Origin: a virus
Taxonomy: Duplodnaviria; Caudoviricetes
Length of the DNA: 64,000 bases
Virus record (IMG/VR): IMGVR_UViG_3300028833_000119
Coordinates: 21,214-85,213 of that record
Strand: one strand, 5' to 3'
Positions within the stretch are counted from its first letter, which is position 1, and the number at the start of each line of letters is the position of its first letter. Under the pieces are notes generated by a model, which saw only the letters and a program-made list of their open reading frames with translations, did not search any database and was not told where the DNA came from. Made by a program: the position numbers and the translations under genes. Positions 3,025 to 49,659 of the stretch are shown piece by piece.

Positions 3025-3031
3025 TGTTATA

Positions 3032-10540: not shown

Positions 10541-10635
10541 TCCCTCCCATTCACGTATTCATGTGATGGTGAGGGAGTGAATGTGTAAAACGTGCGATCC
10601 CTCACACTATTTGGTTTTGTGAGAATATTTAATCT

Positions 10636-12820: not shown

Positions 12821-13735
12821 TTATCTGCCCCAGGCAAGGGAGTTGACAGCATCATGCCGCTGCTCCGCAGTGGAGTGGTCGTACCGGTTGGTGATGGCCA
12901 GGGACTTGTGGTTCGCAAGGTCCCTGGCAACCGCTCCGCCGCCGATCTTCTCGACCGCAGATACGAACGAGTGCCTGAATACGTGCAAGCCACCTTGATA
13001 TCCCTTATCCAGAATTCCGGCCTTCTTCTGCTTGTTCGTCATAGCGTACCAGAGCTGGTTTGGGCTGCATGGCATACCATGCGTGGTTATGAAAAGCGGA
13101 TCGCTGTCCTTGATGTCCTTCCGCGTCTTCAGGTACGTCTCCACATACTTGTACGCAAATTCCGCCACATCCACATCCTTGATGGCGCCGCCCTTACGGC
13201 GAACACGCACATATCCGTGCTTGTAATTCCGCAGATGCCCCACCGTCAGCTGGCAAAGCTCTGATGCGCGGAGGCCTGTGCCGATAAACATGGCGATGAT
13301 CGCCCTGTCACGCTTCTTCAGGTCGGAGTCGCGCTTTGGAATTGCCAGCAGCTTTGAGATGTCCTCATCGGAGTAGTACTTATCCTTCGGCTTCTCCTCA
13401 TCCGGGATCTGATCATAAGAGGGGAGCCGCATCGTCTTCAGCACGTTCGACACATCCGGAATGTCCGGATAGATCGTATGTGCCCAGCGAAGGAACGGAT
13501 TAATTGTTACCACATAGTTATTGATTGTGGACGGCTTCTTGTCCTTCTTGAACGCATTGAACCAGCGCTGCAGTGAAGCGCCGGTCAACCCGTCGATGGA
13601 TTCCTCGTTCATCTTAACACCGAAGTCCTCCATCTGGCGGAAGACCCGCTGAAGAACGTCGATATGGTGTGCCACAGAGGTTTCTGCGATACTGCAGGAC
13701 TCGACATAGAAATCGATCATCGGATACATACACAT
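12821..13735 (-). CDS. Tyrosine recombinase/integrase
   Basis: Catalytic residues 'GLRASE', 'HVFRH', 'ANH', 'RYDH'. Confidence 0.92.
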   Translation of the reverse strand: MCMYPMIDFYVESCSIAETSVAHHIDVLQRVFRQMEDFGVKMNEESIDGLTGASLQRWFNAFKKDKKPSTINNYVVTINPFLRWAHTIYPDIPDVSNVLKTMRLPSYDQIPDEEKPKDKYYSDEDISKLLAIPKRDSDLKKRDRAIIAMFIGTGLRASELCQLTVGHLRNYKHGYVRVRRKGGAIKDVDVAEFAYKYVETYLKTRKDIKDSDPLFITTHGMPCSPNQLWYAMTNKQKKAGILDKGYQGGLHVFRHSFVSAVEKIGGGAVARDLANHKSLAITNRYDHSTAEQRHDAVNSLAWGR

Positions 13736-17627: not shown

Positions 17628-18710
17628 TTACGCTACATTCAGTGTGCTGACAGCATTCAGACGATTCCACTTGGTCGGTGACATTCCGAGGATGTCATAC
17701 CCAACAGACTCCAATTCAGTACTGCGGTCGTAGGATTCCACATCCTGCGCAAACCTTGTGACCGCATTCGCCATACCGTACAGACTCAGATCCCCACCAC
17801 GGATCAGGTGATCGAGGATACCCTGGCTTTCCGCCTTGTTGAAACCGAAGTCTGTTCCGGCAAGCTCCACCATCGCAGGGATATTTGCCGTCACGATCTT
17901 CGCATCCTTCGCCTGACGCATCATATCAACCACACGGTCGAACCGCGTCTGGTCCGCAATTGCCTTAACAGTGTCACGCACCTTCGCAAGGAACGCATTG
18001 TCGTCCAACTTCAGCGTTTCGTCACTGTACAGCGTGAAGTCCTCGCTCGCCACATTTCCGCGCCCAACATGACGGCGCTTCGTGGACGCATCGTTGACCA
18101 CCATACCGTTGGAGCAAACCAGCCGGTATACAAGGGGCTGAATTTCCACACTGCCGGCGCCGACTTCGCTGTTGCTGATGATTATTCCGCTCTGGACGAT
18201 GTCGCCAGGGACAACCTCTGCTGTCAGTCGAGGATTCACAACCTTGATATACATCTTCCGGTCGGTCAGTTCGCAGGATTCGATCTTCGCATCCTGCATA
18301 TCAGCAATGATCGGCAAAACGGTCATCGCGATAGGGTAGTTATCGATCCGGCGGTACTGCTTGGAGAGGAACGCACGGACATCGTTATCGAGCGTCCGGA
18401 TCATCCGTTCCTTGGGATCTTTCTGGAACCAACTGTTCACGTTCTGGGACAGCAGCTCCGGATTTTCCCGGCGCATCTTGTCATAGTAGGCTTTCGGAAT
18501 TCCGAGCGCCGTACCGATCTGCGAATGGGCGATGTCATTCACGCCGAGGATCGTGGTGGTGTTGGTCTGGTCATTGGTCAGTGACAGCATTCCGCCATCC
18601 GTGCCGTAGTCAAAGGTTATCTTGCGAGTATCAACGAGGTAGTCCTTCTTAGCGTTCATCTGCCGGGTCAGTTCCTGGGCAAAATCCATCAGCGTCTTAC
18701 CAAACTTCAT
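17628..18710 (-). CDS. DUF932-family protein
   Basis: 'RTLDNDVRAFLSKQYRRIDN..GIIISNSEVGAGS..RLVCSNGM' pattern recalled for DUF932-like mobile-element proteins. Confidence 0.7.
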   Translation of the reverse strand: MKFGKTLMDFAQELTRQMNAKKDYLVDTRKITFDYGTDGGMLSLTNDQTNTTTILGVNDIAHSQIGTALGIPKAYYDKMRRENPELLSQNVNSWFQKDPKERMIRTLDNDVRAFLSKQYRRIDNYPIAMTVLPIIADMQDAKIESCELTDRKMYIKVVNPRLTAEVVPGDIVQSGIIISNSEVGAGSVEIQPLVYRLVCSNGMVVNDASTKRRHVGRGNVASEDFTLYSDETLKLDDNAFLAKVRDTVKAIADQTRFDRVVDMMRQAKDAKIVTANIPAMVELAGTDFGFNKAESQGILDHLIRGGDLSLYGMANAVTRFAQDVESYDRSTELESVGYDILGMSPTKWNRLNAVSTLNVA

Positions 18711-18730
18711 AATTTTTCTCCTCCTCTTTC

Positions 18731-21700
18731 TCAATACCACAGGTCAACAACAGTGTCAGTGACAGCGAACTTTATCAGATCAGTGTGCGCATTCAGAAAG
18801 TCCAACATGCTCCGCTCACAGGCTCTCTTGAAGCTCTCCACTGTTCTGCGCTTCGGGATAAACATCTCATCGTCGAGCAATTTGTACGGATTGTCCTTTA
18901 CCCAAAGGTCTAACACCTCATCCGATTCACCGAATACATACACATCATTCGTACATTCATGGTATTCCGGATCAAATCCACCACCATTGCACCGGAATTC
19001 CACCAGAATCTTTCCAACATGCATTGCACCGAACACATCGGTGTCCTGTTTGTCGAACCGGATCTTCTCAAAACCGTCTTCAGTCAGCTTCCAGACAAAG
19101 TTCAGATCGTACTCATCACGTTCATACTCGTAACGTTCTCCTCCACGATATTCCTGGTGCTGGTTGATCCAGTCCATCGCTTTCTGGTAACCAGTGCCGT
19201 CCTCGTCCGTGCTGATTCCGAAGTATCTGGGTTTGTGTTCCAACTGATCTGTGACAACGTGCGTGTAAACTTTCATCGTGATTCCTCCTCATCCGGCAAA
19301 TTCTTGTCGTGAATATACTGATCAAGCACAGCGTCCAACACGGTCTTTTTCTCAATTCCTCTCTCGCTCACTTCGTACAATCCGGAGTCTGCCATGTCAT
19401 ATTCAAGCCAATTTTCCGGTATATAACCGCCCTCGTCCCAATCACACGGCTCAAATTGCTTTGTTTCAAGTTTGACCTGCACGGATCGTGGCAACTCCGC
19501 GTATTCCACATCACATCCACGACCAAACTCCGCCAACTGCCTGTCTACAATCTCCTGGAGCTGTTTGTCTGTTACTTCAATCTCAACGCTTAATCTCATG
19601 TGCAGTTTTGCCATCGCTCATGCCGCCTTTCTCAACTGTGCATGAATTCCGAACTGGTTCCAACAAACATCCTCGACCTCGTCATCGGTCAGCACCTTAA
19701 CCACCTTGATCCGGTCGGTGATCAGCCAGTTGCCGTATGCATTTGGATTTGTCGTGAACCAGTAGTACCCATGATCCGGCAAGTGCTTCAAACAAGCACG
19801 TTGCGCACTGAATTTTCCATTCAAGATTCCGTTTTTATGAGCCTCCGGCGTGTAATCCTTGCTATCACACACTTCGCACAGCGCCCATACCGTATCCGGT
19901 CGCTGATACTTGACTTTGCCGTTCTCTTTAATGCCGATATGCGGAGCGAACGGCGCCTCCGACAGATGCCATCCGGGACGGTAGGCAAGGGGGCCAAGCC
20001 TGCTCCTTACCTTGCCGTTCATATCCCGGATTCCTTCCTTTGCCTTGAGCCATTCTCCAACCGGGATTGTTTCGTTGGCAAAAACAAAGAGCGGATGTAA
20101 CTTTCCGCTCTTATCCATACGAAACTGCTTGTATGCGATCATCGTTTCATCATCCTTTCTGCGTTTGTGGTGGTGGTGTTCGTTGGCTAATATCGAAGTC
20201 ATTCCTCCTTCTTTTTCTTCGACTCTTGTAACTTCTCTACAAATCGCTTCGCTTCATATCCTTCAGAAAATCCTATGCTCCATGCACCTCCATCATGCAA
20301 ATACATAATCAGAAAAATAGTTCCCATCACAAGGACTCCAAGAACAACCCCGACGATCAACGCAAGGAGATCAAACGTCCATGTAACCATCTCACCAAAC
20401 CTCCTCTGCACTCTGCGGATTCTCGTAATGCCGTCCGTATTCTACCTGCGCCGACACGCTGACCCGGTAGCCTTCATTCTCCGGGAATTTTTGCTTGATA
20501 ATAGGGAACACTCGCTCCAGATCCCACTTGTTTGCGATACTCCGCTTTGCCGTTGCGAATAAGTGTATCCCGTTCTGGGAAACGTTGATCTCGTACCAAC
20601 TTGCGATATCCATACTAATCACTCCTTTGCATATTTCGCATAGTCATCGTTGCTCTTCTGAAGCGTCTTCTGCATTTTCTCCATGCGTTCCGCCAGAACG
20701 TGCTTTATATAACCTGCAATCGCTTTCTCGATATCGCGCTCAAGTTCCGGATTCCACGCATCAACAATCGCCCTCATTGACTTGCTGAATCCGCCGGTGC
20801 GACAGGCACTCTCGAACGATTCCTGCTTATCGCAATCCATCGTTCCAATGTAGTAACCGCCGGAGTAAATCTTATCCGTATAGAATGTGATGCCGGCTGT
20901 CCGCCTGTATCCGTCATCTTCGCTGTAGATGACCCTGTTCAGCACCACGAACGTCGGCTTATTGTTCGGCGTCCGCATAGCATCCGCCTCGATCAGCACT
21001 TTCAGCATCTCATCCAGAAAGATTCCGATCAACTGTAACTTGTTCTTGCGTTCCTGCTGTACCTGCGCTTCCTGCCGTTCAACCGTCCGCTCAACCTCGA
21101 CTTCCAGTGCGTTGATCCGCTGCGCTTCCGCAATAAGTTCATCCATCAGTTTGCTCATTTCTCATTCTCCTTTCAGATACTCGTTGGTGTACATCGGCAG
21201 GAGTCTCAGATCGTCCTCGCTAATCTTCTCAGAAACTTTCGTTTCGGATCCATCGAAACCATCCAGAAGCTCGTCGTTCACATCACGCTCCATCTCCATG
21301 TCCGTGTCCTTCTTCTCCCAGAACAACCGCCGTGCTTCTTCGGCGGTTTCCGCTTCCACAATGAAGCTCGCCTTGTAGGTTTCGGTGATCGTGACCTTGA
21401 AATTCTTCATATCAAATATCCTCCTCGCTGATCTCGGCATTATCCGGATCGCACACAGAAGCGTCCTCTTCATACGCACGTCCATAGTCCCAATCGCCGT
21501 GATACTGCACATCTTCAGTAAGATCGCACATCATCTGATTTATGCCGTGCCTGCTTTCCGACCACGCATCAAAGATACGATCGGCGTCTTCCTTGTTCTT
21601 CGCCTTGATGGTATACTCATGGGTCATCGTCAGCGTAACTTCCTTGCTGAACACCTTGTACGGCTCTTCCTTCTTCAGTTCGTCCTTATGCTTTTCGATC

Positions 21701-22579
21701 ACGGCATTCATAGCCGGGAAGATGTTGCTTCCCATGTTTTCGTCCATCGCATCCTTTTCCTGCATAACTTCGTCAACCATCTTGCCAAAGAGTTCTGCAG
21801 GGATCTCGTCGATGATGTTCTCTTCCTGCATCAGACGCTCGTTCAGCATTTCCCGTGTGTTGTACCGCTCCGCTTCGTAATGCGCATCCAGAATCTCGCC
21901 ATCGGTCAGGTCGATTACAACGTCCGTGCCCAGAATATTCCGCTTAATCTGCATAATCATTTCTTATTCCTCCTCTTCTCCGTCCAGTTCTTCTGCGATC
22001 ACATACTCAGCAGTCAGCCAGAAGGATTCCATAAAGCTATCGTTATCGTTCAGCGCATCGTCGAACCGTTCTGCCGTGTTCCGCACCCATTCTTCGTCGT
22101 TTAGCACACGACGCAATGTCTTCCGCGATACCTCGATTCCGTGGTCGATATATACCGGCTCGTCTTCCGGTTCATCCTCGCCGATGAAATCTTCCAGTTT
22201 TGACTTGATATCTTCCATGTTGTAGTACAGGCGTCTTGCCCGGTAGACCTGTTCAATTTCCTCATCCGTCAGCTTAATTACCTGCCACTGTGTGCATTGC
22301 GTTCCTTCTGCAATCTTCCGCTTCAGTTCCATTTCCATCTCAATGCTCCTCCTTCTCAATCAGTCCGTATGCGATACACAGTTCCTCAAACTCTCCGGCA
22401 AGGTGATCGTAATCTTCGCCATAGATGATTGCGCAATCTTCCGGCGCTTCGCCATCTGCAATCGCCTGATCACGATCATCGCAAGGGATATCATCCGCAG
22501 TAATTCCTTTGCTCTCCAACCAATCTTCCACAATGTCCACCATAGTTCCGAAAAATTCCATCCGTTCGCTGTGATCCAT
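18731..22579 (-). CDS. Ten early hypothetical ORFs (18731-19276, 19273-19614, 19618-20142, 20199-20411, 20392-20622, 20619-21158, 21162-21410, 21412-21960, 21964-22338, 22340-22579)
   Basis: Abutting ORFs with RBSs; several strongly acidic. Confidence 0.75.
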
Positions 22580-22633
22580 AAAAATCCCTCCTCACTTCTT
22601 ATGGGAACATTTTCTGTTACGAATTAATTACGA

Positions 22634-23443
22634 TTATTTTAATTCTTCATAAATATCGAACACATCGTTCTTCTTGTAGCACACCAGACAGGATTTGCAG
22701 CTCCGTCCACCGCAGTTAATCACGATTTCCGGATGATCTGCCAGATATTCCTTGCTGAACACTGTAAACCGATGATCAACCCACTCGCGGATACATTCCG
22801 GCACAGGATCGATCACATTGATTCGCAGACTGCTCCACACAAACATGACATTCTTCGGTTTGCCTTCCAGCCGGAACGCTTCTGCCCAGATTCCGGCATT
22901 CTTACTCCAGATTGCGCATGGAAGATAACCAGGGCAACTCCGCAGAAGATTCCGTGCTTCCGTCACGTTTTCAACATCGCCGAAACTCTGTACCCGATAA
23001 AAAAGAGCGTTGCCGAGATTCAGCTTCGCCCATATCTTTTTCGGAATCAGTACGTTCCGCAGTATGTATCCGTTTAATTTGTTCCGGTTGCTCAATCCTG
23101 CATACTGTCGTTGCATCGCTTCGGCATAACAGCTTGCGCAGATGATATCTGTCCAACCTTGCTTCGCAATTTCCTCCATAGCCATCTTCATCCGGGCGAT
23201 GCAGTACACATTATCGTGTACTTCCGTGCTGACGGATGCTCCGCCGTCAAGTTTGCTGTTGTTTTCATCACTCTTGTGAAACACAATCCAGATTGCGGTC
23301 ACAAGCACGATATATTCCGCAACATTCAGCTTGCCTTTCCTGAGATATTTCTCCACAAGCGGATTTACCATTTCCGCAACCTTGCTAACCATCTTCCCGA
23401 ATGGTTTACCCTTGTACGTGGTGGCTTTCTTGAGATCGTTCAT
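22634..23443 (-). CDS. GP88-like phage protein
   Basis: 'ICASCYA' CxxC and 'FYRVQSFGD' resembling the GP88 family motif. Confidence 0.55.
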   Translation of the reverse strand: MNDLKKATTYKGKPFGKMVSKVAEMVNPLVEKYLRKGKLNVAEYIVLVTAIWIVFHKSDENNSKLDGGASVSTEVHDNVYCIARMKMAMEEIAKQGWTDIICASCYAEAMQRQYAGLSNRNKLNGYILRNVLIPKKIWAKLNLGNALFYRVQSFGDVENVTEARNLLRSCPGYLPCAIWSKNAGIWAEAFRLEGKPKNVMFVWSSLRINVIDPVPECIREWVDHRFTVFSKEYLADHPEIVINCGGRSCKSCLVCYKKNDVFDIYEELK

Positions 23444-23549
23444 GGTGTAATTCCTCCTTTGTGTAGTGTGAAATAATCTCTGACACAATATCCTCGTATC
23501 AAATATATCGTGTCACAAAAAATGTACCGGATTCGTTACATCCGGCACA

Positions 23550-26500
23550 TCATTTCCTCACTTTCCATCCATATATATTCGCGACCTTGTCGCCGATTCT
23601 CTGTGTGTATCTCGTGATGTCTTTTCGAGTTGCTTTCCCGATCGCAACTTTCTGCATAAAGTACGATCTCTGCGCATGACTGATTTCAGGTTTCCATGCC
23701 CTGTATGTATACAGGTTCGTTCCGTCATGGTGGATATCACGGCACATCAGATCTCCGCGATCATCCACGAACCATGTGACGTAATCGCCACATGTTCCGG
23801 TCAGGCAATCTGCAATATTCGTGCTATGCAGAAGTTTGTATGCCTGATGCCGTCCGTCCCACAAACCGAGATCCGCAATGATGATGATTTCCTCGCCGAC
23901 TTCGATATTCAGATTTGCCCGTTCATCTTCCAGACCGTCCAGTTCGTCACCGTAGAGATCATTGCTCCAGATAACATTCATCTGCATACCCATCACTCAT
24001 TCCTCCTCATTCGTTAAAAATACCGTCATGGTCTATTCCACAGACGGTAATATCGTGCTCTTCGATTTCCATATCGGGGTCTTCCGCTCCGTCAAGCTCG
24101 CTGTTATCCGCTACGATCATCTGTTTTGTCAACTTCTCAATCTCCTCATCCGTAGGGTCTGCATCAAGCGGAATCCGCAGGTACACATGGTAGAATTTGC
24201 GAACACAGACATTTACAGGAACAATCTGCCATACATACTCGTCACTCATGCGAAACACTCCTTTCTACTATAAGCACTGGAATTACTTTCCAAATACCAG
24301 TGGCAACGGCGGAACACGTCCGCATATTCTGCCGGCATCTCAAGCAACCTATACCATGTTCCGTCAATCTCAATGATCTGAATACAGGCATCCCAGTATT
24401 CCGCACGTTCTTCCGGCGTAGGATTCTGTATTGCCATCTTTCCCCAGATTTTCCCTTTCGCTCCAAGGGAAAAGTGTTCGTATGTCGCCCATATATTTTT
24501 GTCATCGCTGACGAAAACGATTTCTCTGCCCTTGATCTTGTTTCCGACTTCAAGCTTCATCTCGATCACTCCTTCGCACACAGGTCGTAGATGTCTGTAT
24601 CACAGATAACTTCGTTGCAGTCGTTACATTCCAACGTGTAGCAACCCTGTCCAATTCCGTATTTGACAATGGCAACGTCGTGTCCGCAATGTTCCGACAA
24701 CCTGCGGTACAGCAGGGTCAGATCGAAGTTGGGACTCTTGTCTGTCTTTGCGTTCGTGCTTGTAATCGTGATTTTCGCCATTGTAATTCCTCCTCATCCA
24801 ATGTTGTAGTTATACAGTGTTCCGCCATGCTCCGATATAAGAAACGCTGGTATCGGTCGGCGATCTCTCTGCAAATCCCACGGGATAAATCCGTCACGAT
24901 ATTCCATACCGTCTTGCACGTTGTATTGAATAAAGCGGAAGCCTTCGCCCGGAAAATAGCTCCAGTATTCCATCCAATCCCCATTTAGTTTGTATTCATA
25001 CACTCCAATTTTTTCCGCATGAAACAACGCAAGCCTTTCGTTTTCACTCATGCTCTCCCCACCTTTCTGATTGTTCCGTCCTTCCGCAGTTGAAATCCCT
25101 GCATTTCGCCATAAGCATAAGCGTTGTCGTACATTCCGACATCGTATACAAACCACGTCTGTTCCGGCGTGATTCCGTATTCCGCACGGTTCAGCGCATC
25201 AGCAATCTTCTGCGCTTTCTTCTCCGCAACTCTATGCGCACTCGCTGCGCTGTACAGGAATTCATGTCCTTTGATTGCTCTCGCAACAACTATCATCACT
25301 CATCCCTCCTCTCCGCATCTCTTCATTCCGGGATAGTACGCTTTTGTGCCCCAACGATTTGCTTCCGAATCAAGGCACAAACCATCTTTCATGTACCGCC
25401 TCATCACGGACAGGAATTCCAACACACATTCCTCAAATTGCTCCTCATCCTCTGCAATATCTGCATAATCATCCTCGCTTGCTCCGTCCGGGAAAATGCA
25501 GATCCACGCCATGAATCCTTCTTCATTGTTCATACTCCGCATCAGACGATCCATGGCTTTTAGATCGTCAATTCTGCTCCGCTTCATCTGTTCCGTCATT
25601 ACGCACACTCCCTTTCTTTTTCGTACATGAATGTAATCTTCCGGCAGGATACGCAGATATACTGGAATCCCTCGTAATCTTCCGCAATGGATTCCAACTG
25701 TTCCTTCAGCGTCATCCGGTAGTCACGCTCGATGTGTCCGATCTTCATATATTCACATCCTCTCCGTAATTCTTCCGCACATATTCCCGGGCAGATTCCT
25801 TGCTCGTCAGACTCGCTTCCACCCAATCGCCATTCACCCATACGCTCCAGTATCCGCTCGGCAGTTTCCGAATCTCGATATTCACGTTTATTCTCCTCTC
25901 TGATAGGCGTTCCTCACTTCTTCTTCCGTCATGGTCGGCGGATACGTGCATCTTCCACGTTCTCCGTCTACCACCCATTCTGCACCGCCCCAGTTGGCAG
26001 TGCGGGTTTCTTTGCGGATGTCCCAGATTGTGTAATTCATCAATCATCCCTCCAATTCACATATGCTCTGCGGTTCCTGTCCTCGTATTTTTCCGACATC
26101 TTCGCACTCACAAGCAATCCAAACAGAATTCCTGCACACTCCGCAACCTGCTCGTCTGTGCAATCCGTCCGGAGTAGGGGATTCAGCATCCATCGCCGGG
26201 ACAACCCTTCGTAGTACACGTTCCGGTTATACTGATTTCCGACAAGTTGCATTTTTCCGTACAGGTGATCGAAGAACATATTGTCGTTCACGCTGAAGTC
26301 GTACACAATTCCGTCAAGCAGGAATTTGATGTATCCTCTGCCCCAGATCGGCTTCGGCTCATCATTCTCAATGCAGTAATAACTCGCCATAACCTTGATA
26401 GACGGCTTCACTTCTCCGCCTTTGCTTTCCACAATTTCCGCAAGCTTTCCAAGCATTCTCGCCGTGTTGTACTCCCACGCTGTCAGATATACACGTTCGC

Positions 26501-28891: not shown

Positions 28892-29070
28892 ATTTCACAC
28901 CTCCTTATGCCAAAGCATAACAAATTCTGCAAAATTCCGCAATGGATTTTCCGCTCCACGCAGGGGAATTCCGCATTAGTGTAGAATTCCCCTATGGGGA
29001 ACGGGCGTGGAATTCTCCACGCTCCAAATTCCGCTATTCAATTTTCCAAGATAGGCTCCAGATTCTGTTA

Positions 29071-29601
29071 TCAAGCAGCCATTTCCTTCATGGCGATGGC
29101 GACCTTCAGCTCGTCCACCTGATCGTCCGTCAGTCCCTTAATCCACTGGTCAACGCTCACGTTCTTGACCTTCTTAACCTCGGACTTCTTCCCCTTCGGG
29201 GAAGCCTTCTTCGCCTTCGGAGCGGTCGGAGCCTTCGGCTCTTTGTAGTAAACCGGACGGCTCGCCTTTTCTTCCCAACCGCCGTTGAACCAGCTCCGCA
29301 GGGTGGCGATGCTCTTGATCTTGTTGACCTTCATATGGTCAACGGTGGAGTAGGTGTCCATGCTGACGATCAGGTTCAGGAACAGACCCCAGCGATCTTC
29401 GGGAGTCTTGGCGCCACAGCACTTCTCCATGAGGGTCTTGACGGTCGGATGGTTCACAAACTGCGGAGCGAGAATCTCACCCTTGACAAGTTTGATCAGA
29501 CCGTTGTACACCCTGAAGGTGTCGTTGTCCCACATAGCCTTGGTGAATCCGGCGGGACGGGTTGCTTTCTTCGTGGCGTTCGTGTTGGTGTTGGTATTCA
29601 T
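29071..29601 (-). CDS. First early gene; hypothetical protein with Lys/Pro/Ala-rich linker
   Basis: RBS AGAAAGGGG; 'KEPKAPTAPKAKKASPKGKK'. Confidence 0.8.
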   Translation of the reverse strand: MNTNTNTNATKKATRPAGFTKAMWDNDTFRVYNGLIKLVKGEILAPQFVNHPTVKTLMEKCCGAKTPEDRWGLFLNLIVSMDTYSTVDHMKVNKIKSIATLRSWFNGGWEEKASRPVYYKEPKAPTAPKAKKASPKGKKSEVKKVKNVSVDQWIKGLTDDQVDELKVAIAMKEMAA

Positions 29602-30467
29602 GGTATACCCCTTTCTCTGGCATAGTGCCAGCTCTGATTATTATGGGCAATATCGCCCTATCGAACGTCCCCGGCGGGGGCGCTCAAGAGGACGGACGGT
29701 CGCTGTGCAAGGCGACAACGAGCAAACGCAGGTTGTCAGCACGTTGACCGTCAGTTGATCTCTGTGGTTCATGCAAGGGTAGTCACCGTCACGTCCTTCG
29801 GACGGCGGACGGCTTGCCTTCTTCGATGCAGCGATTTGGGCAGACTATCCCCCTCATGGTTCACGGTCGTGGTGGCTTGTCCGGACGGACTCCATGCTTT
29901 TACCTCCTTCTCGTCCTCCATCCCGGTGTCATCCCCACCTTCAGCCTGTACCGCCCTGCATGGCAGTAACTCTCAGATCCCGATCTCACCATGCCCTGTC
30001 ACGGGGAAAGAAGGGCGCAGCAAACACACCTTCCCTCCGGAGCATGGTTACTCCTCGGTGCTGATTCTCGGTCGGTCTATAGTACTCCCATACTCACATC
30101 CAGTTGCAAGCTGAAGGGCGACCGCCCTACACCGAAACCCTGTGCCATTCGTACACTGTCCTACTCTACTTTCGGACTGCCTACTCTACTTTCGGCATGG
30201 TACTACTCCGGTACATTCCTCCGATGCAGTCATCCTGCTTTCTGGGGCTACTCAACCTCATCCCGAAGGCTATGGTACTGCTGTGCTGTGAGCAAACAAC
30301 GAACACACAGTCAGTTGTCAAGGTACAGTCGTTGAGTAAACGGTGACGCTAGGTGGTAGGGAGTATCTGCAACCCTACTCTTGATCCAACCTAGCAGATC
30401 TTGACGGTCTTACACTGAGAGTGGCTTAGAATCACGGTTTCTCTCAGAACCCTTGTGCTCTCGATCC
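29602..30467 (-). ncRNA. Candidate large structured RNA or 5' leader (~860 nt)
   Basis: Lies between a promoter and the first early gene; no convincing minus-strand ORF; many short GC-rich hairpins. Confidence 0.45.
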
Positions 30468-30473
30468 GCCGTC

Positions 30474-30503
30474 ACTATGCAATGTTCGTATCCGGTTTGT
30501 CAA
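30474..30503 (-). promoter_or_regulatory. sigmaA-type early promoter
   Basis: TTGACA-N18-CATAGT on the minus strand. Confidence 0.6.
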
Positions 30504-30776
30504 TAGGGAATTTTACAGTTAGGTAAAACTAACTTGATATAAAAAGGCTAAAACATATTGAAAAATCTACAGAAAAAAACTTAAAATTTTTTTGAAATTT
30601 TTTGAAAGTTAGCCGGTTTTTGGCTTGTGAACAAAAACAGACCAAAGTCTAAAAAAAGGCGAACGTTCGGGTCTAGAGGCGAACATTCGATCAAAAAACA
30701 GGCTAAAAAACAGGTGAATGTTCGTGTTTTTTGTACGTACAACTTGATTCGGTACCTAACAATCGAAAAATTAGCC

Positions 30777-30925
30777 TGTGGAAAAGTTATCCACAGGGAA
30801 GAATGACGTAAAATAAGGCGTTTCGTTCATATTGAAACAGTAGTTATCCACAGGAAAAAGGGATCAAAAAAAGTTATCCACACATTTTCCACAGGTGGTT
30901 GTGGATAATATAAAAGTTATCCACA
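30777..30925. promoter_or_regulatory. DnaA-box cluster (putative origin or DnaA sink)
   Basis: TTATCCACA at 30787, 30844, 30874, 30917; reverse copy at 30900; one-mismatch boxes at 30777 and 30885. Confidence 0.85.
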
Positions 30926-31533
30926 ACACCACAAGATATAGTGGTTCTTTAGCTAACTAAAGCAAAGAAGCAAAAACCCGGAACACAAGGAAATACAAGC
31001 TTTGCAGGGTTTTGACGATACAGAATACACAACTAAATATTGTATTTTATTGTATTTTACGTTTGAACCATACGAAAACACACCCAAACCCCCATGCCTA
31101 TCTTTTCTACAACTCGATTTTAAAACGAGATCACAGCACAGTAGCCGGGATCCTCCGCGAGAAACCATAAACATTTTCGGCAAAAATAAAAACAAACCAA
31201 TGAAAACCTTGCGAGATATGAGTGCTTATCATAAAAGTTTGATACTATTTTGATACCTTCTTGCGGGGCGAGGAAAATAAATTTCCACTACAGGTAGACA
31301 AACAACCTCGAAATGTTCCCATATATAGTGAGGGGCAGTTCAGCCAGCAACTCGCCCGGTTCGCCAGCGAGGTCCGGCTAACGACACTGACGATGTCCGG
31401 CCATCTTGGATTTCTCCCTGTGTGGCGAGATGTCCGGTTCGGCTGCGGGGCTATCTAATGATATCTAAACATATATATACATATACCTATTTATTTATCA
31501 TTAATACATCGTATCTAAAAGTGAGGTTTTTCA

Positions 31534-32889: not shown

Positions 32890-34289
32890 ATTATATCGTT
32901 TATAACGGTAATCTATTGTGCGAGCGGGATTGTATAGAAGATGCGATAGGTTTAATGCGTTGTGCTATCAGAAGACTTATGGATTGTGGGGAAGAATTGC
33001 CGTCAAAGGAAGAACTTGAAACGGTTTTAAATTCTGCAATATTATATGAAACAAAGGTTAAAGAAGACAATTATGGCATGAATTATGAGGATACAACAGA
33101 CAGGCAGTTTGCATATAAAGCGACAAAAGAATATCTGGATGGCATGATGTGTATTTGGGATGGCGCCGGAGGGGGTTTATATCGTCATAATGGTGAATGT
33201 ACTGACATAAGAAATAAGATGATAGACATGTATGGTACTTTGCATAAATTATGTTGCGAAGAGGAGTTCTGAGGAGTGCATGAAGGATGCTGACGAAATG
33301 CGGGATTACGATACCTGACGAAAACGACAAGTATCATGGATATTCTGAAGCTATTGTTATGTTATACAAAGTATGCAGGCAGATTTGTGTTGTGCTTGAC
33401 AGGCAGCAGGACGAGATTGACCGGATGAAGAGGTGTTTGAATGGCGCAGAGGATAAGGGTGCTGATGCCAGAGGGGTTCAGGGAGTTTTACATATATGAT
33501 GACAACCGGGTGCTGGCGGCTGATTATATCGGCGGAATATTGGCGGCAGGTGAGGAAGTGATATACCGCAGTCTGGTTTGCGAGATCATGAACGATTTTG
33601 TGGACTGTGACGGCGATACATATCTGGCGTTGCTCATGAAGGGTGGTCTTGGCAACGTAATAGACTTTAATGTTTTATAAGGAGAAAAGTATGGAGAAAA
33701 AGAAATTTGTGGTGGTAACAGACAAGGGCGTTATGGGTTCAAAGGGAATGAGCGGACGTGACGTCATGGCAGAGCTGCTGTATGCGTTCCTGCATGTATG
33801 GTGTGAAGAGGTTTGCCCTGTCGAAATCGGTAAGGCCGGGAAAGCGGTTGTTGATTTGCTGGACTCGATGTGTGACGAAGACGAGGAAGAAGATAATGAT
33901 GAAGACGATCTGCTTGCTGATATCATGAAGATGCTGCTGGAGGATGATGACGAATGAATGCGAAGGAATTGAAAGAGAAGATCAGTGAACAGCAGTTCAA
34001 GCTGAAGAAAGCGACGACGAGCGGGATGATGGTTGCGCAGGAGACAGACCGTTTGCGGAATATCCTGGTAAACAGCCTGGACGACATTCTTGAGGCGCTT
34101 GATATGGCGATTTCTGCGGAGGACAGGATTGAATGCCTGACTGTGGAGATCGAATCTGCGGACGCGGAGCTGCAGGAGAAGGACGACGAGATCAAGGCGC
34201 TGAAGGAAGAACTGGAAAAACCGAACGGTAAGAAGGTTGCCGGGAAACGTGCGAAACTCCCGGTAGTTGACGAATCCAGTGTCGAATAA
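32880..34289 (+). CDS. Five hypothetical ORFs (32880-33272, 33287-33499, 33441-33680, 33691-33957, 33954-34289)
   Basis: Abutting ORFs with RBSs. Confidence 0.7.
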
Positions 34290-34695
34290 AGTTTACAGTG
34301 AACTTTCATACATGCCGCTGAGTGAGGAAAGAGTCGTCCAGAAACTCATTCGCGACAGGTCGGTATAGGACCAATCTTTCTGGCCCATGTTTGATCCGTC
34401 CGGTATATTGAGCACGGACGGCGTGTTTGCGCTGAACGAGGACGTACTGTGTATTTATGCGGACCTTGATTCGCTGATTGAGCGAGCGGGATTAAGTGAG
34501 CAGGAGCGCCTGACAGTGGACCTGCTGATGCAGGGATACACGCTTCCGGACATTGCTGACCATTACGGGAAGTCAAGGCAGAACTTCGAGCTTTTTCTGA
34601 AGAAGGCTTGCAAGAAGATTGTAAAGCGCAACAATGCCGACTGGGAAGAATGCACGGGTGCGCGGATCGACGACGGCGAGTGGGAGAGTGAATAA
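34279..34695 (+). CDS. Sigma70 region-4-like HTH regulator containing an in-frame TAG (34366-34368)
   Basis: Frame open from GTG 34279/ATG 34312 except for one TAG; C-terminus 'GLSEQERLTVDLLMQGYTLPDIADHYGKSRQ..KACKKI'. Confidence 0.65.
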
Positions 34696-34698
34696 TAT

Positions 34699-34860
34699 AT
34701 GTGGTTAACAATACTTGCGGCGAGCAGCTGGTGTCTGTTTGCGTATATGGTACCGGTTGTCTGTGCGATTGTGTGGATACGCAGGCGCCGTGACAAGACT
34801 GAAATAATCCAGGAAGGGGACTGGATGTCGGATGACGGCATGCCGGTGGATGAAGAATGA
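34699..34860 (+). CDS. Small membrane protein
   Basis: 53-aa ORF with hydrophobic N-half. Confidence 0.55.
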   Translation: MWLTILAASSWCLFAYMVPVVCAIVWIRRRRDKTEIIQEGDWMSDDGMPVDEE

Positions 34861-35126
34861 CGAGTTATGAGTTTGAAGTTGCGGCGAAGAATGCCGTGAT
34901 TGAAATGCTGGCGAAGCGCGGGATTGACGCGAAGATTGAAGACTTGCAGCTGACGTGGTTTACACATTTGCTTGGAAACAAGAAGTGTATGATCTGGGGA
35001 GAGCCGATGGCGAATCTATATGCGGAGATCACGTATGCGCGTGACAGCCAGATAACGTATTGTGATCTTTACCAGAAGCTGGATCATATGGATCTGCACG
35101 ATTGGGAACTGGATTTTGAAGCGTGA
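34857..35126 (+). CDS. Conserved phage protein (DUF6275-like)
   Basis: 'LTWFTHLLGNKKCMI..YAEITY..YCDLYQK' resembles that family as I recall it. Confidence 0.5.
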   Translation: MTSYEFEVAAKNAVIEMLAKRGIDAKIEDLQLTWFTHLLGNKKCMIWGEPMANLYAEITYARDSQITYCDLYQKLDHMDLHDWELDFEA

Positions 35127-35133
35127 TATATAT

Positions 35134-35439
35134 GGGGTAGGCAAGAACAGGGAGGTCTGGGCGTGTGTAGGCGAGCGCGTAGCTGAAGCGGCAGACTGAT
35201 AAATGCCAAGAAGAAAATACAGCCCGTACGTCAGAACACATCGGGGCCAACCCGACGGGATTCGGAGGACGCAAGTGCCGAAGATAAACCTGACACAAGG
35301 CGTTTTGACATCTGACAGGGATGCGTGTGATTAAGTGGCGGTGGAGAAAGATCGGTACGATAAAGCGCCGGCGCGACTGCACACCCCCATATCTTTCAAA
35401 AAACCTGACAAGCACGAGGAGGTTAAGGCTACTGCACCA
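35134..35439 (+). ncRNA. Divergent tmRNA-like RNA
   Basis: 5' GGGGUAG pairs with 3' CUACUGC-A-CCA (G3:U70 wobble, G2:G71 mismatch); helix-2-like pairings; UA at -5/-4 of a GCC resume codon; T-arm non-canonical. Confidence 0.4.
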
Positions 35440-35466
35440 GGCAGCTTTTTCAGTCGTGCGTATCGA

Positions 35467-35526
35467 AAGACGCTAACAGCAAAAATTATACAATAACAAT
35501 TGGAATGTTACTATGCATGCGTCTTG
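35467..35526 (+). ncRNA. AAGACGC-RCAGCAA stem element, copy A
   Basis: AAGACGC/GCGTCTT closing stem, TAACAGCAA, internal TAACA-ATTGGAA-TGTTA stem-loop. Confidence 0.55.
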
Positions 35527-35550
35527 TTATTTTATATCGGAGGTGCTTAT

Positions 35551-38370
35551 ATGCTTTGCTGGAACGTTTATGTAAGTGACTTTAATTCCGGCAGGATTAA
35601 ACCTTATAACATCTTTCAGCACTACGGGTTTTATAACGAGTGCGTGAAAGCGAAGAAAAAACACAAAGACGACAAAGAAGGTTTTGGAAAAGACGTGCAT
35701 GGCTGGCTGATGTATTACTTCTGGTCGAAATGTGAATGGGAAGTCATCCTGGACCACTGGCCGTCCGGCGAGTTTTATAACATGCGCAAAGTGCTGACGC
35801 TGGAGGAAATGTACCATGACCTGAAGTATCCGGAAGACAAACTGTTCAGCGCGCCTGATAGGCGGTTCGAGATCCGCGTATTTCCGGAACACAACCGGTT
35901 CAGGGAAGAAAAGATTGACGTTTTTGCCCAAGTGGAAAACAACTGGGATATTTTTATTGATTGGCTATGGGATCACCGCAGTGAGTTGAAAGCGAGAAAA
36001 TAATATGGCGAAGAAAGAAGTAATGCTTGGTGTGCCGGATAGTCCGGAAGTTGAAAATGAAATAAGTTTGTTGGAGCATCGTGCTATTTTGTTTGGGTTC
36101 CCGGAGCATGCTGTCGAGATTGAGATTCAGGCGAAGGTTTTCGAAAACGGAGAACTGCTGAACGTAACAAAAAAAATGGATATGGATGAGATCCGCGAAG
36201 CTTTCCGGAAAGCGGATGACGGTTATGTTGATGATGATGATAGATTTGTGATTACCGATAAAGGAATTGCATATCTGGAAGAACACAATCAGCCCACTTA
36301 AAATCAATACAATTTTATAAGTAATGATAAGTAGATGAGTATTTACCCATCTCGTTTACCGGAGGTTCACTGACCATACTATTATTAATGGGGTGATCAT
36401 ACAAAATGAAGGCGAATCGATATGCGCGGAAGCGCCGGCACAAACGTGAGCTTGAGAAGAAATATGCGAAGAAGTATGCGTATGGTTCCGGACAATATGA
36501 TGTTCAATGGTTGCGTGAAAAGTTGCGGCGTGAAGCCCAGGAAGACAACTGGTGGATTCGAAGGCATCCTCCAAAGAATAATGGTTGGGAGTACTGGAGG
36601 ACATATTCCCTGTCCGGCAGGCGCGGATATGCAAAGAAATATTCAGACAAATGTATCCGGCAGAAGTACAGGCAAATGATCAAGTGCATTGATCCGGAGG
36701 ATGTGATTGCGATGAGGGGCGCTGATTATGAAAAAGAGTATGACTATTCGTGGACGATTTGGTAAATGGCGTGAGAAGCGCATGATAATCCGGAAGAACA
36801 AGGAACTGTGTGAGCGGTTCCCTTTTTTGATACCATGGCACAGGTTTACTGGCGAACGTTTCGTACAGCTGGACAGGCACGGAAAAATGAAAGCTGTTCA
36901 TGACTATGACTGGTCGTATACAGAACTTGACAGTATGCCGGATGGGTGGCGCAAAGCATTCGGAATGAAGATGTGCGAAGAAATCCGCGAAGAACTGATC
37001 AAGTGGAATGATCTTGACCGCTGGCAGATTATTGAGATGAAAGAGAAATACGGGCAGCTGCGTATTTATGACAACGGCATAAAGATTGGATGTCGTATTC
37101 ATGATATCGAGAGAAAATACGAACAGATCAGCGAGCGCACATGCATCGTGTGCGGTGCGCCTGCAACAAAGATGACGCTTGGATGGATTTCGCCGTACTG
37201 CGACAAATGCTGTCCGGAAGAGTACAGCGAGCCGATCGGCAAATATTTAAAGGGGGAAGATACAATTGTCTAATGAAATACAGGTAACTGAAAAGATGGC
37301 AAAGTTTATTGACTGGGTGACCAGCCTTGGCGAAGATGAGGTGCGTAAACGCATCCGGGATAAAATTAATGAAATCAAAAACCTGCCGCCGAACGTGCGC
37401 GACCGGGACGGTTATTACTGGGATATCCGGCTTGAGCCGAACGATGGGAATGATCAGTACAAACACGGCGGCGACTGCAATCTGTGTAAACGGCTGAAGT
37501 ATTGCGGGACAAAGTGCGGAGCAAATAAGGTTTTGAAGAAAATTACAACGCCTTATCTGTACCAGATGTATATTGACGAAAACCCGGAAGTTGCCGCAGA
37601 AGAGGCAGCTGGTCGGATTACACCGGATGATATGTTGAAGATTGTGGGTGCGGACGATGGACAGCAGCCTGTTCTTTGATGATATTACATGGTGCATGAA
37701 AAGCGATTGTCCTATGAGGACATGCAGAAGGAACTCCGTGAACATGATCGATCGCACAGGACTTCATTCGTTCGCGATATTCAAAGGAACGGCAGACTGT
37801 CCGATCAGCCAGTCCCTGGACGAGTGCATGGACGGATGCCTTTACGCAAAAGAGTGCTTCGCAAAACACGACGATCCGGATGAGGCTTTGAGGGTGCTGG
37901 TGGAAGAATACTGTGACGACTGTATGTTTTCTTCTGCGGAGGAAGATTAATGAAAGAGATTATTACTGAAAAGCAAATGAAGGATGCGTTCAGGGTTGCG
38001 TATGATTTTATGAACAAACATAATTCAATCCTGCATGAAGCGGATGAGTATACCCGTACGGTTAACGAGATTTATGGGGTTGCAAAGACATACGGTGTTA
38101 ATCCTTTGATGATGCGCCTGGTTGTTGCATGCTACGAATTTATCTGCGACAAGTCATTTGCAATTCGTTCACAGGAGGGAAAAGATGACACCTGAAGAAC
38201 TTCTTGAAGATCTTGAGACATGCACAGGGCCTTGCGGACGGATGTGTATGTCATGTCCGGAAAGCAGGTATGTTGCAGAAATCCGCGAAGTGCTTGTAAC
38301 GCTTATGGATGAAAACAAGAAATTGCGCGAGGCGCTCAGAGGATATACAGGGGAGGTTGATTTTTTATGA
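35551..38370 (+). CDS. Eight middle-region hypothetical ORFs (35551-36003, 36005-36301, 36406-36765, 36782-37273, 37266-37679, 37657-37950, 37950-38195, 38185-38370)
   Basis: Abutting ORFs; 36782-37273 carries 'EMKEKYGQLRIY..CIVCG..YCDKC'. Confidence 0.72.
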
Positions 38371-38518
38371 TCAGTGCATGGTGGCTGCTGTTGATTGTTC
38401 CCGCGTCGGCGTTGTTGGGTATTTTTTGTATCGCTTTATGTTCGGCATCGAGGACAGATGACTGACATGCTTGCATATTTGCCGATTTATTTAATTATAT
38501 AAGAGGGAAGGGATTATA

Positions 38519-39202
38519 TTGGCGACAGGACATAAAATTATCGAACCTTCCGGCAGGACTTCTGTTGCGATGATCGATAACCATGAAAGTGCCGTTGCGT
38601 ATGTGAACGGCATATAGGAGAAGTGGTCCGGTTATTGCGATAAAAATTGGTTGAACGATTCCGGTGATGTGTATACGCCGGAATTGAAGATCAAGTATTT
38701 TCTTGACGGACTTGCTTATTTGCTGCTGATCGGAAACACGGATGGCATAGAAACGAACTATAAACGTGTGATGAATGCGAAGCGTGAGATTCCGGCGTCA
38801 AGCTGTCCGAGTGAAATCGAGAACCTGTTGTATGGAACCGGATGCTCGACGGATTACGCAGAGGAAGAGGAAGCCCAGTTCCGGGATATGCTGGACAGGC
38901 TTGACAGCAAAGCGGAGCCTTATGAATGCAGGAAAACAAAACGAGACAGGAAATGCAGCCTGTTTGCGAAGAAACTGCAGAAAGGCATACCGGACGGAGA
39001 CTGGTATCTTGTTGATACGGAAGGAAGATTCAGGGTCGGCGACCAATGCTATATTATCGAGGATAACGCTGTACAGTACCAGCCGGTCCAGACGGAGTAC
39101 GGCAATTATTACGCGATGGATAAAGTCCTGTATGCTGGCGGCAAATTCTACGATATGAATTATGACGAAGTGATTGTCCTTCAAGTCGGGACGGAGACGT
39201 AA
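38519..39202 (+). CDS. Hypothetical protein containing an in-frame TAG (38615-38617)
   Basis: TTG start after GAGGGAAGG RBS; 32 sense codons, TAG, then continuous frame into track ORF 38651-39202, which has no RBS of its own. Confidence 0.65.
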
Positions 39203-39215
39203 AACCCGTCTGCAT

Positions 39216-39322
39216 AAGACGCACACAGCAAACCATATACATATTAAAAACTTCTTAATAATAGTTTTCCGGCAACGCCTCCTGACAGTGCGGACCAGTG
39301 CCGGCCTTTTTATTGCGTCTTG
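39216..39322 (+). ncRNA. AAGACGC-RCAGCAA stem element, copy D
   Basis: AAGACGC-ACACAGCAA ... GCGTCTTG with two internal hairpins (including CCGGCA/TGCCGG). Confidence 0.55.
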
Positions 39323-39328
39323 TCTTAT

Positions 39329-39402
39329 TGCCTGTTAGCTCAGTCCGGAAGAGCGTCGCACTGTTAATGCGAATGTCACAGGATCGAAGCCTGTACAGGC
39401 AG
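39329..39402 (+). tRNA. tRNA-Asn (GTT)
   Basis: TGCCTGT/ACAGGCA acceptor, GCTC/GAGC D-arm, TCGCA-CTGTTAA-TGCGA, ACAGG-ATCGAAG-CCTGT; CCA not encoded. Confidence 0.9.
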
Positions 39403-39500
39403 CGAATTGCGGTATAAGTTTTCGGACTTATATCTGGGTGGCCGGATGCGTCCGGCTTCCTGCACCAAGCTGTGCGAAACATCCGCCGAACGGCGGACAT

Positions 39501-39580
39501 GGCCGTGTATGCAAAATGGAAAAGCAGTGGCTTCTAAACCCATGGAATTATTCTGGGTTCGACTCCCAGCTCGGCCACCA
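39501..39580 (+). tRNA. tRNA with CUA anticodon (amber suppressor candidate; Leu- or Tyr-like body)
   Basis: GGCCGTG/CTCGGCC, TGC/GCA D-arm, GTGG(C)-TTCTAAA-(C)CCAT, 9-nt variable region, CTGGG-TTCGACT-CCCAG, A-CCA encoded. Confidence 0.75.
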
Positions 39581-39643
39581 AAGACGCTTGCAGCAAACTT
39601 GAAGCATCAGACTGTTAATCTGAAGAAGCTAATCGGCGTCTTG
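39581..39643 (+). ncRNA. AAGACGC-RCAGCAA stem element, copy B, with Asn anticodon arm
   Basis: AAGACGC-TTGCAGCAA..TCAGA-CTGTTAA-TCTGA..GCGTCTTG. Confidence 0.6.
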
Positions 39644-39653
39644 CTACATTTTG

Positions 39654-39715
39654 AAGACCCATACAGCAAACAACTGATGAAGCTACAGAGGATGATGAGC
39701 AGAAAGCGGGTCTTG
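39654..39715 (+). ncRNA. AAGACCC-RCAGCAA stem element, copy C
   Basis: AAGACCC-ATACAGCAA ... GGGTCTTG (compensatory change in the stem). Confidence 0.6.
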
Positions 39716-48651: not shown

Positions 48652-49659
48652 ATGGCTATCGAAATCTATAAGGATTCTAATGTGATTGACGTGGTCGTAG
48701 CCTCTGCTCGGAAGGAAAACCTTGACAGTGAAGTTCGCGAGAACGCTAATAAGCTGATCAAGGATCTGGCTGCTGACCCCACTCCCAATAACCGGTATCA
48801 GATCGCTCAGATCGTCCGCTTTGCTGCGAATGAAATCGTGAAGCGTGATACCAACTGGCTGGACTTGATTGCTGACACCAAGCGTGTTGGCTATGGTGAT
48901 AAGGCTTCCTTCGATGTGAAACTGAGCGGCGTTCGTGCTTTCATTCAGGCGAAGGGCGCTACCACTCCCCGGACCAAGAATGGCCGGAAGAGCATGTCCA
49001 TGGACACCATTGCCGTGTCTGCCCGTCCTGTTGTGAATATCGTTGAAATGCAGAACGGTCTGGCGAACATGGCCGACCTGGTGAATGATGCTTCCTACCA
49101 GATGGAATGCCAGATCAACAAGTATGTGCAGGGCGTCCTGAACACTGCGGCTCCGAACTGGGCTGCTCCTTACTACGGCTCTGGCTCCACCGGCCTGGTA
49201 AAGGCTACGATTGACCCCATGATCCTGCATTGGCTGCGGATCGGCGGCGGTGCTACCATCCTGGGCGATGTTGGCGAGCTGAATAAGCTGGCTGCTCTGA
49301 CCGGATTTACCTCCACCACCAATACCCAGCAGTATGCCGACCAGATCATCGTTGAGCAGAACGCTGCTGCCTTCATCGGCACCTATCTGGGCGCGAAAGC
49401 GATCCAGCTGGTGAACCCGCTGATGGAAGACGGTACGGATAACTTCGTCTTCGATACCAAGAAGCTGTACATCCTGCCTAACGCTGTGGATCCCGGCATG
49501 CGGCCTCTGAAGGTCGTGTTCGAGGGAGATATCTTCTCCATCGATAATACCAATATCGACGACCTGAGCTACGAAGTGCGGCTCGATCAGTACTTCAATG
49601 CTGCTGTCGCGTATGGCGATCGTCCTTACATGAGCGTTTACGCCGACCTCAGCACCTAA
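48652..49659 (+). CDS. Major capsid protein
   Basis: 335 aa, position, strong codon bias, followed by a hairpin and T run. Confidence 0.8.
   Translation: MAIEIYKDSNVIDVVVASARKENLDSEVRENANKLIKDLAADPTPNNRYQIAQIVRFAANEIVKRDTNWLDLIADTKRVGYGDKASFDVKLSGVRAFIQAKGATTPRTKNGRKSMSMDTIAVSARPVVNIVEMQNGLANMADLVNDASYQMECQINKYVQGVLNTAAPNWAAPYYGSGSTGLVKATIDPMILHWLRIGGGATILGDVGELNKLAALTGFTSTTNTQQYADQIIVEQNAAAFIGTYLGAKAIQLVNPLMEDGTDNFVFDTKKLYILPNAVDPGMRPLKVVFEGDIFSIDNTNIDDLSYEVRLDQYFNAAVAYGDRPYMSVYADLST

Follow-up and report, generated by a model that had tools for sequence, protein, structure and literature searches.

A 64-kb stretch of viral DNA (the window), the right-hand part of the 85,213-bp IMG/VR record IMGVR_UViG_3300028833_000119, carries a transfer RNA (tRNA) gene with the amber anticodon CUA and, upstream of it, two genes that are each interrupted by one in-frame TAG codon; a third interrupted gene lies on the same record outside the window. 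The three genes encode a regulator with a sigma-region-4-like domain, a conserved protein of unassigned function and a RuvC-like resolvase. From comparison with related phages we think it probable that the phage tRNA reads TAG through and that the three TAGs, all close to the N-terminus, are kept by selection as a translational gate.

Three in-frame TAG codons and a CUA tRNA

The elements in question are listed below, in window coordinates unless the record is named.

34279..34695, plus strand: gene for a 138-aa helix-turn-helix (HTH) protein, GTG start, TAA end, with TAG as codon 30
34366..34368, plus strand: in-frame TAG no. 1, context GTA TAG GAC
38519..39202, plus strand: gene for a conserved 227-aa protein of unassigned function, TTG start after a good ribosome-binding site, TAA end
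38615..38617, plus strand: in-frame TAG no. 2, codon 33, context ATA TAG GAG
39501..39580, plus strand: putative amber suppressor tRNA, anticodon CUA, found by ARAGORN and by the Rfam tRNA model (39.0 bits; gathering score 29)
Record 10107-10652 (L006), outside the window, minus strand: RuvC-like resolvase gene, with a TAG at record 10551 as codon 34

Genes were called with a codon-usage score trained on long open reading frames (ORFs), giving ~130 genes across the whole record. Gene ends are TAA or TGA throughout and none of these ~130 credible genes stops at TAG, extending to the full record what a first-pass annotation of the window had noted for the gene ends it checked. Translation table 11 does yield ORFs with a TAG end, which either run antisense to genes that score better or represent 5′ stubs of the interrupted genes; one apparent TAG end (ORF 28942-29625, plus strand) is antisense to a much better-scoring minus-strand gene.

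Every TAG with 25 open codons on either side was then scored for coding signal; TAGs in the first ~10 codons of a gene could have escaped the gene model. Just three TAGs have in-frame coding signal on both sides (window 34366 and 38615; record 10551, minus strand). The three sites share the pattern R-T-R TAG GA-N and lie 30-34 codons into their genes; were positions uniform, the chance of all three falling within the first 35 codons would be ~0.008 by arithmetic from the census. The first-pass annotation had described exactly two TAG-interrupted middle genes. This is right for the window, where two genes are affected; the record adds the RuvC-like gene, 10.6 kb upstream of the window and in the opposite-strand replication arm, and the device is therefore not one of the middle genes alone. 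No in-frame TAG was found by gene model or census in the terminase, portal or capsid-region genes or in the tape measure of the window phage, whose 2501-aa ORF is open throughout under table 11, as the first-pass annotation had it. Coding coverage hardly changes between the standard and the TAG-sense code (0.909 versus 0.911).

Several further TAG candidates were dismissed. At record 2382-3269 (minus strand) there is no coding signal before the TAG, and an HNH-type endonuclease starts after it; the gene itself (record 2382-2966, minus strand, L006) is HNH/AP2-type homing-endonuclease-like, and a TAG-sense reading seemingly fuses it to a non-coding upstream ORF, which would produce a spurious 'fourth' amber gene. 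Candidates at record 18645-19151, 20460-23735 (DnaE-like), 49339-49647 and 4296-4859 fell on the same ground, a non-coding upstream part.

The CUA cloverleaf, first noticed from the sequence, is confirmed by both ARAGORN and the Rfam model, and ARAGORN finds two tRNAs in the window, Asn(GUU) and CUA. The latter has the anticodon loop UU-CUA-AA, discriminator A73 and an encoded CCA, with a 3-bp D stem, an 11-nt D loop and an unpaired variable region of 9 nt. Its stems contain two mismatches, C31-C39 and U6-U67. We rejected the label tRNA-Pyl, which ARAGORN gives to any CUA tRNA. The hallmarks of tRNA-Pyl are a very short D loop, a 3-nt variable loop, a long anticodon stem and accompanying pylS/pylBCD genes, and the architecture here differs (D loop 11 nt, variable region 9 nt, anticodon stem 4-5 bp).

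Translation confirms that the TAGs at 34366 and 38615 are both in frame with the long ORFs in which they had been placed. The GTG at 34279, already proposed as the start of the HTH gene, is backed by full-length homologues beginning MSNKV(Y/F)SEL.Y, and the TAG is codon 30 of 138. The HTH assigned to this gene has support from profiles: over its last 70 residues the product resembles sigma region 4 (phrog_3512 'sigma factor', E=7e-9), and TIGR02937 aligns over positions 111-163 of 165 (region 4 only) with 18 bits, under the cut-off of 42.9. In an AlphaFold2 (AF2) model, the C-terminal helices have a predicted local distance difference test (pLDDT) score >90, and Foldseek searches with the HTH return sigma region 4 and LuxR-type HTH domains with a probability of 0.9-1.0 but E values of at least 0.06. 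Ahead of the HTH, the model has one N-terminal helix (17-32), with the TAG near its end, and a disordered linker. No profile in Pfam, PHROG or NCBIfam matches sigma-70 region 2 in the N-terminal part. Because region 2 is absent, we use the name sigma-r4-like HTH regulator rather than sigma factor.

The second gene always lies directly 5′ of the tRNAs, and this position is the sole clue to its role. Its product has no match in Pfam, PHROG or NCBIfam, and an AF2 model (pLDDT 72) compared by Foldseek with the PDB and BFVD gave nothing significant. Homologues are plentiful, with 71 close ones and 251 representatives from a profile search of 1.8 billion proteins; longer relatives add homing-endonuclease domains only. 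The AF2 model places TAG no. 2 inside a helix (22-43).

The resolvase gene is located in the leftward replication arm. PF02075 (RuvC) covers residues 9-164 of its product with 21.9 bits against a cut-off of 22.2, and phrog_159 covers residues 7-173 (E=7.6e-15); both matches span the TAG. The first catalytic strand (IIACDFS; DxS) is encoded upstream of the TAG, and the motifs ACDFS and CDDESDAV are conserved, in line with the N-terminal catalytic Asp strand and the C-terminal DDxSD motif that mark RuvC-like resolvases of RNase-H-like fold.

Relatives and the probable amino acid at TAG

Homologues of the regulator occur at ~50 loci among IMG/VR and JGI metagenomes. Of the 44 loci covering the site, 43 have TAG and one has TGT; after deduplication (34 genes, mean pairwise nucleotide identity 0.68) the counts are 33/34 and 1/34. 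Seven conserved Leu columns in the same alignment use 4-8 codons each, with the commonest codon present in 12-26 of the 34 genes, and CTG is the preferred Leu codon. The columns that match the TAG column in uniformity are those of Met and Trp only, residues with a single codon. TAG also appears sporadically at two otherwise conserved Leu columns. The 29 residues before the regulator TAG are conserved through synonymous change (an invariant Arg uses 6 codons), which argues that this segment is translated in the same frame. For the second gene, the comparison covers 13 distinct relatives, of which 11 keep the TAG and two carry CTT (Leu) instead. The RuvC site is kept in one IMG/VR relative, and more distant relatives have single TAGs elsewhere in the gene; five related partial records yielded no RuvC gene.

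In protein databases, most close homologues in all three families are N-terminally truncated gene calls, and each gene also has a minority of full-length homologues that lack TAG. Their residue at the site is L or Q, or more rarely M, Y, C, I or V; nine such regulators carry M, Y, L, Q or C. No GenBank phage resembles the region, where the tRNA-Asn alone was matched, and a regulator-profile search of 185,579 species genomes returned no prophage copy.

ARAGORN identifies a CUA tRNA directly after the second gene at 10 distinct loci. In L001, L002 and L039, neither ARAGORN nor Rfam reports a tRNA at that spot, yet unconstrained folding gives a cloverleaf that has CUA in the middle of a 7-nt loop, along with A73, CCA and an unusual T loop:

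L001:1727-1812, L002:6883-6958 and L039:14750-14835: CUA tRNA-like genes with C33 or odd T loops (GGCAGAA, UGCAAGU, UGCAAUU)

With these, all 13 distinct loci that extend far enough have a CUA tRNA or tRNA-like gene directly behind the second gene, and the co-occurrence of tRNA and TAGs, put forward in the first-pass annotation as a check, is found in each of them. The tRNA bodies are highly diverse and measure 76-88 nt, with differing acceptor stems and variable regions of 4-15 nt. L036 and L039 have near-identical flanks around different tRNA cassettes, which indicates that the cassette is exchanged while the TAG sites stay.

Pooled table-11 gene calls in the relatives (n=382) end in TGA (203), TAA (173) or TAG (6), and the last six are probably internal TAGs. 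Two sister phages mark the range of TAG usage. G001 (60 kb analysed, reaching ~22 kb past the tape measure) has only the same two TAGs, as judged from 8,674 aligned residues and gene calls; it covers the tail and lysis region missing from the window record and has no TAG there. G002 (L053 and L054; IMGVR_UViG_3300011005_000122; 40 kb) has ~21 in-frame TAGs, spread over terminase, portal, capsid-region, tail and tape-measure genes. Given that TAG stops are purged across the clade and that one sister uses ~21 TAGs, TAG is, on this sequence evidence, reassigned clade-wide, with the window phage at the sparse end. The earlier statement that there is no global recoding stands in so far as TAG is sparse in this phage; for the clade, with its purged stops and its TAG-rich sister, it does not. 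We also looked for a context signal in G002 and rejected a purine after TAG, present at 17 of 19 TAGs against a background of ~70%, as not significant.

G002 provides the most direct view of the amino acid. Sixteen of its TAGs align to a residue in proteins of the window phage, and this residue is Leu in 11 cases and Gln in none (P~9e-9 at a Leu frequency of 9%). We therefore hold with high confidence, on alignment grounds, that TAG is read as Leu in G002, where code 15 (TAG as Gln) does not fit. The first-pass annotation had looked to the aligned residue in homologues to settle the matter; G002 answers clearly, and the window phage's own three sites, showing L and Q alike, are less direct.

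Bacterial-type tRNA-Leu has A73, a 3-bp D stem, an A14/G18G19 D-loop layout and a long variable arm. Phage tRNA-Leu and the suppressor tRNAs have in common A73, the 3-bp D stem, A14/A15/G18/G19 and an enlarged variable region; two of the suppressor tRNAs have weak BLAST matches (E 0.05-0.8), mostly to annotated phage tRNA-Leu genes. In the window tRNA, A73, the 3-bp D stem, A14, A15, G18 and G19 are all present, and the variable region is 9 nt, compared with 11-15 nt in most relatives. The G002 alignments, the sporadic TAGs at Leu columns, the CTT replacements and the tRNA-Leu-like features together point to TAG as Leu in the clade, and we consider it fairly likely that the window's own tRNA also reads TAG as Leu.

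A proposed translational gate and its alternatives

In the scheme that we propose, TAG, which has been removed as a stop from all genes of this phage, would be retained as a sense codon at three places. The suppressor tRNA is predicted to be charged most likely with Leu by the leucyl-tRNA synthetase (LeuRS) of the host. Without the tRNA, host release factor 1 (RF1) would terminate each product after ~30 residues, and the RuvC fragment, ending just past the first catalytic Asp, would be inactive. With accumulated tRNA, full-length regulator, second protein and resolvase would be made; the gate would then tie the amount or timing of a late-acting regulator and of a DNA-branch nuclease to the build-up of phage tRNA. 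A phage would have reason to withhold both a junction-cutting nuclease and a late regulator early on. Expression and charging of the tRNA, the efficiency of suppression and an effect on timing or feedback are what we infer in drawing this scheme. A delay, positive feedback or silencing in a prophage, as proposed in the first-pass annotation, may be among such effects, and the regulator might act on the late genes or on the tRNA itself. Dependence on the tRNA was most likely selected, because it is the TAG itself, beyond the residue, that is conserved at the sites.

The nearest competitor, to which we give a minor share of belief, is a plain clade-wide reassignment of TAG to Leu with very low usage, in which the three TAGs are ordinary rare codons with few synonymous escapes. 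It accounts well for the absence of TAG stops in the clade, for a sister in which ~21 TAGs must be readable in late genes, and for sporadic TAGs at other Leu positions, all the more as TAG has a single synonymous neighbour. It accounts poorly for TAG in 33 of 34 regulators at 68% identity while Leu codons turn over and CTG is preferred, for a second phage (G001) in which the same two sites are the sole TAGs in 60 kb, and for the placement of all three sites near the N-terminus. Nor is the residue itself constrained, since the regulator site tolerates M, Y, L, Q and C. Codon conservation, N-proximal placement, a stable sparse state and the constant presence of a tRNA fit a gate better than leftover codons.

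The tRNA might instead serve mainly to take over the host, by read-through of host TAG stops, or to counter a host defence directed at translation, with the TAGs locking the tRNA in or denying the genes to competitors that lack it. Cassette swaps between near-identical phages whose TAG sites stay agree with this, and a purge of TAG stops would be expected if suppression were strong enough to harm termination. We regard it as improbable as the main explanation, for lock-in leaves unexplained why the clade uses three fixed sites close to the N-terminus, with a regulator and a nuclease among the genes. A host-directed role is compatible with the gate, and both may coexist.

Still less likely is an account without suppression, in which TAG ends a short peptide and translation re-initiates downstream (TAG-GA resembling a Shine-Dalgarno core), or in which context drives read-through independently of the tRNA. 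All three sites are TAG-GA(N) and contain AGGA, and potential starts follow: an ATG 6 codons past the regulator TAG in this phage, and a TTG, a table-11 start, at 38651, 11 codons past TAG no. 2. These starts are not conserved, the Met being absent from most relatives of the regulator and the TTG being CTG in 12 of 13 relatives of the second gene. Homologues starting downstream of the TAGs, which the first-pass annotation had named as a result that would speak against suppression, were thus not what we found; full-length homologues exist. A restart past the TAG would deprive RuvC of its first catalytic Asp, the peptides encoded ahead of the TAGs show conservation in the frame of the main protein, and the CUA tRNA is always present. 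The remaining suggestion, that the TAGs reflect faulty sequencing or assembly, minor alleles or pseudogenizing mutations, has nothing in its favour and is refuted by the same codons carrying TAG in dozens of independent assemblies from several metagenomes, a comparison that supports the TAGs as programmed.

Several points weigh against the gate and its proposed chemistry. The record is ~74% complete, its sequence stopping at the end of the tape-measure gene, and further TAGs could sit in the missing tail and lysis genes. If TAG is Leu, TTG is its one synonymous neighbour and some codon stability would be expected even if selection played no part; in the second gene, a Leu column with CTG in 12 of 13 comes close to the TAG column in uniformity. 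At the three sites, Gln and Leu are about equally frequent among TAG-less database homologues, although this does not decide between the two, because both are one mutation from TAG (CAG, TTG) and the sites tolerate many residues. The C31-C39 mismatch and the 9-nt variable region leave the efficiency and the Leu identity of the window tRNA uncertain. Finally, the regulator and the tRNA share a rightward block, and possible co-transcription would limit any delay to the time of tRNA maturation.

Recoded gut phages (crAss-like, Lak, Jade, Agate and other phages; code 15, TAG to Gln) are known to carry their own suppressor tRNA (10.1101/2021.08.26.457843; PMC9523058; PMC10607447). In published cases TAG is Gln or TGA is Trp, in many genes and with a bias to structural and lysis functions (10.1101/2021.08.26.457843; PMC10607447; PMC9523058); phAss-1 has TAG in 41 ORFs (PMC10607447). 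Suppressor tRNAs have been predicted to belong to the Gln, Trp, Ile and Tyr isotypes (PMC10879173). The window phage resembles these phages in having a CUA tRNA of its own, conserved genes with in-frame TAGs, gene ends that are never TAG and a host that presumably follows the standard code, and our idea agrees with the published one that late functions are held back by recoding. It differs from them in that they have many TAG genes, found through a gain in coding density, whereas the window phage has three TAGs in 85 kb, all outside the structural genes. Of the features that mark Borges-type recoded phages, it has the stop-codon tRNA and the in-frame, non-terminal TAGs and lacks the many affected genes and the density gain. 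Furthermore, conservation at its sites, which lie in genes for a regulator, a nuclease and an unassigned protein, extends to the codon itself, and the residue is probably Leu. A limited literature search found no report of a phage TAG-to-Leu code, and the word 'leucine' is absent from 10.1101/2021.08.26.457843 and PMC10607447. Known cases spread TAG over dozens of genes, which makes the regulatory idea hard to test; here, it comes down to one tRNA and three codons. Recoding this sparse is invisible to detection by coding density, and gene callers split or truncate the affected genes.

The closest system in logic is bldA of Streptomyces, a tRNA-Leu(UAA) that reads rare TTA codons in regulators such as adpA. 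Common to both are a very rare codon confined to few genes and dependence on one dedicated Leu tRNA, which in the case of bldA is developmentally controlled. They part in that bldA acts in a cell on a normal sense codon, with stalling as the outcome of failure, whereas here the codon is a host stop, the tRNA is viral and failure means termination. For the resolvase there is a precedent in endonuclease VII (gene 49) of phage T4, synthesis of which is delayed by translational control through an mRNA hairpin in the early transcript: a junction-resolving nuclease is withheld until late at the level of translation, there by the hairpin and here by a private codon.

A more detailed version of the gate can be put forward tentatively, as something short of an even chance. 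It would be a minimal 'private codon' switch, with TAG as Leu at three selected sites and an exchangeable tRNA, its maturation perhaps aided by a neighbouring structured RNA, acting as a timer or commitment signal for late development; this would make it a viral counterpart of bldA and an unreported phage TAG-to-Leu code.

Elements around the tRNAs and elsewhere in the record

A repeated, structured RNA-like element accompanies the tRNAs.

39581..39642, plus strand: structured RNA-like element, starting at the first base after the CCA of tRNA-CUA
35467-35525, 39216-39321, 39581-39642 and 39654-39714: RNA-like element copies with the motif AAGAC(G/C)C-NNN-CAGCAA ... G(C/G)GTCTT
39329..39403, plus strand: tRNA-Asn (GUU), found by ARAGORN and Rfam (tRNA model, 60.9 bits), in the same place in several relatives

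The motif occurs in 4 copies in the window, against 0.24 expected by chance, and its closing 7-bp stem exists in three mutually compensating versions, among them AAGACCC/GGGTCTT in copy 4 and AAGACAC/GTGTCTT in relatives. In the relatives there are 42 motif matches, and the element often starts 0-8 nt past a tRNA-Met or tRNA-CUA. Some inner hairpins have 7-nt loops resembling anticodon loops (CUGUUAA in copy 3). The copy at 39581..39642 might possibly help 3′ processing of the tRNA. Theta (minimal HDV-like) ribozymes adjoin phage suppressor tRNAs, and 4.5% of theta-associated tRNAs encode CCA (PMC10879173). The likeness lies in a structured element at, or a few bases past, the 3′ ends of phage tRNAs, suppressor tRNAs included (PMC10879173); the differences are that the element here starts with A, not with the G1 of HDV-like ribozymes, and that the tRNAs here encode CCA. 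As Rfam gave no match, we dropped an HDV-like or theta ribozyme identity for the element.

Between the second gene and the tRNAs lies a terminator-like hairpin (~39268-39306). In L002, an Rfam match to 'abiF RNA' (6766-6802; 40.2 bits versus a gathering score of 37) sits within the element that separates the second gene from the tRNA-like gene, and resembles a terminator hairpin. Many relatives have a tRNA-Met (CAU) ~1.1 kb past the regulator TAG (for example L003:11173-11245, L013:3559-3632 and L024:1377-1450); the matching place in the window (~35127-35500) has no tRNA and is a 370-nt non-coding gap ending in copy 1 of the RNA element. On the 3′ side of the tRNAs follow an exonuclease-like gene and then the large terminase, portal and structural genes.

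Searches of the record for a release-factor gene and for a serine recombinase gene found neither. Two tyrosine recombinases are present:

12821-13735, minus strand: tyrosine recombinase (Phage_integrase) gene, 87.8 bits
Record 1364-2389, minus strand: tyrosine recombinase (Phage_integrase) gene, 84.8 bits

These two genes may act in integration, in dimer resolution or in both, and their presence makes a temperate lifestyle possible. Where the leftward arm gives way to the rightward one, ~1.9 kb of the window (29602-31533) are without a convincingly coding ORF and probably hold a divergent early control region.

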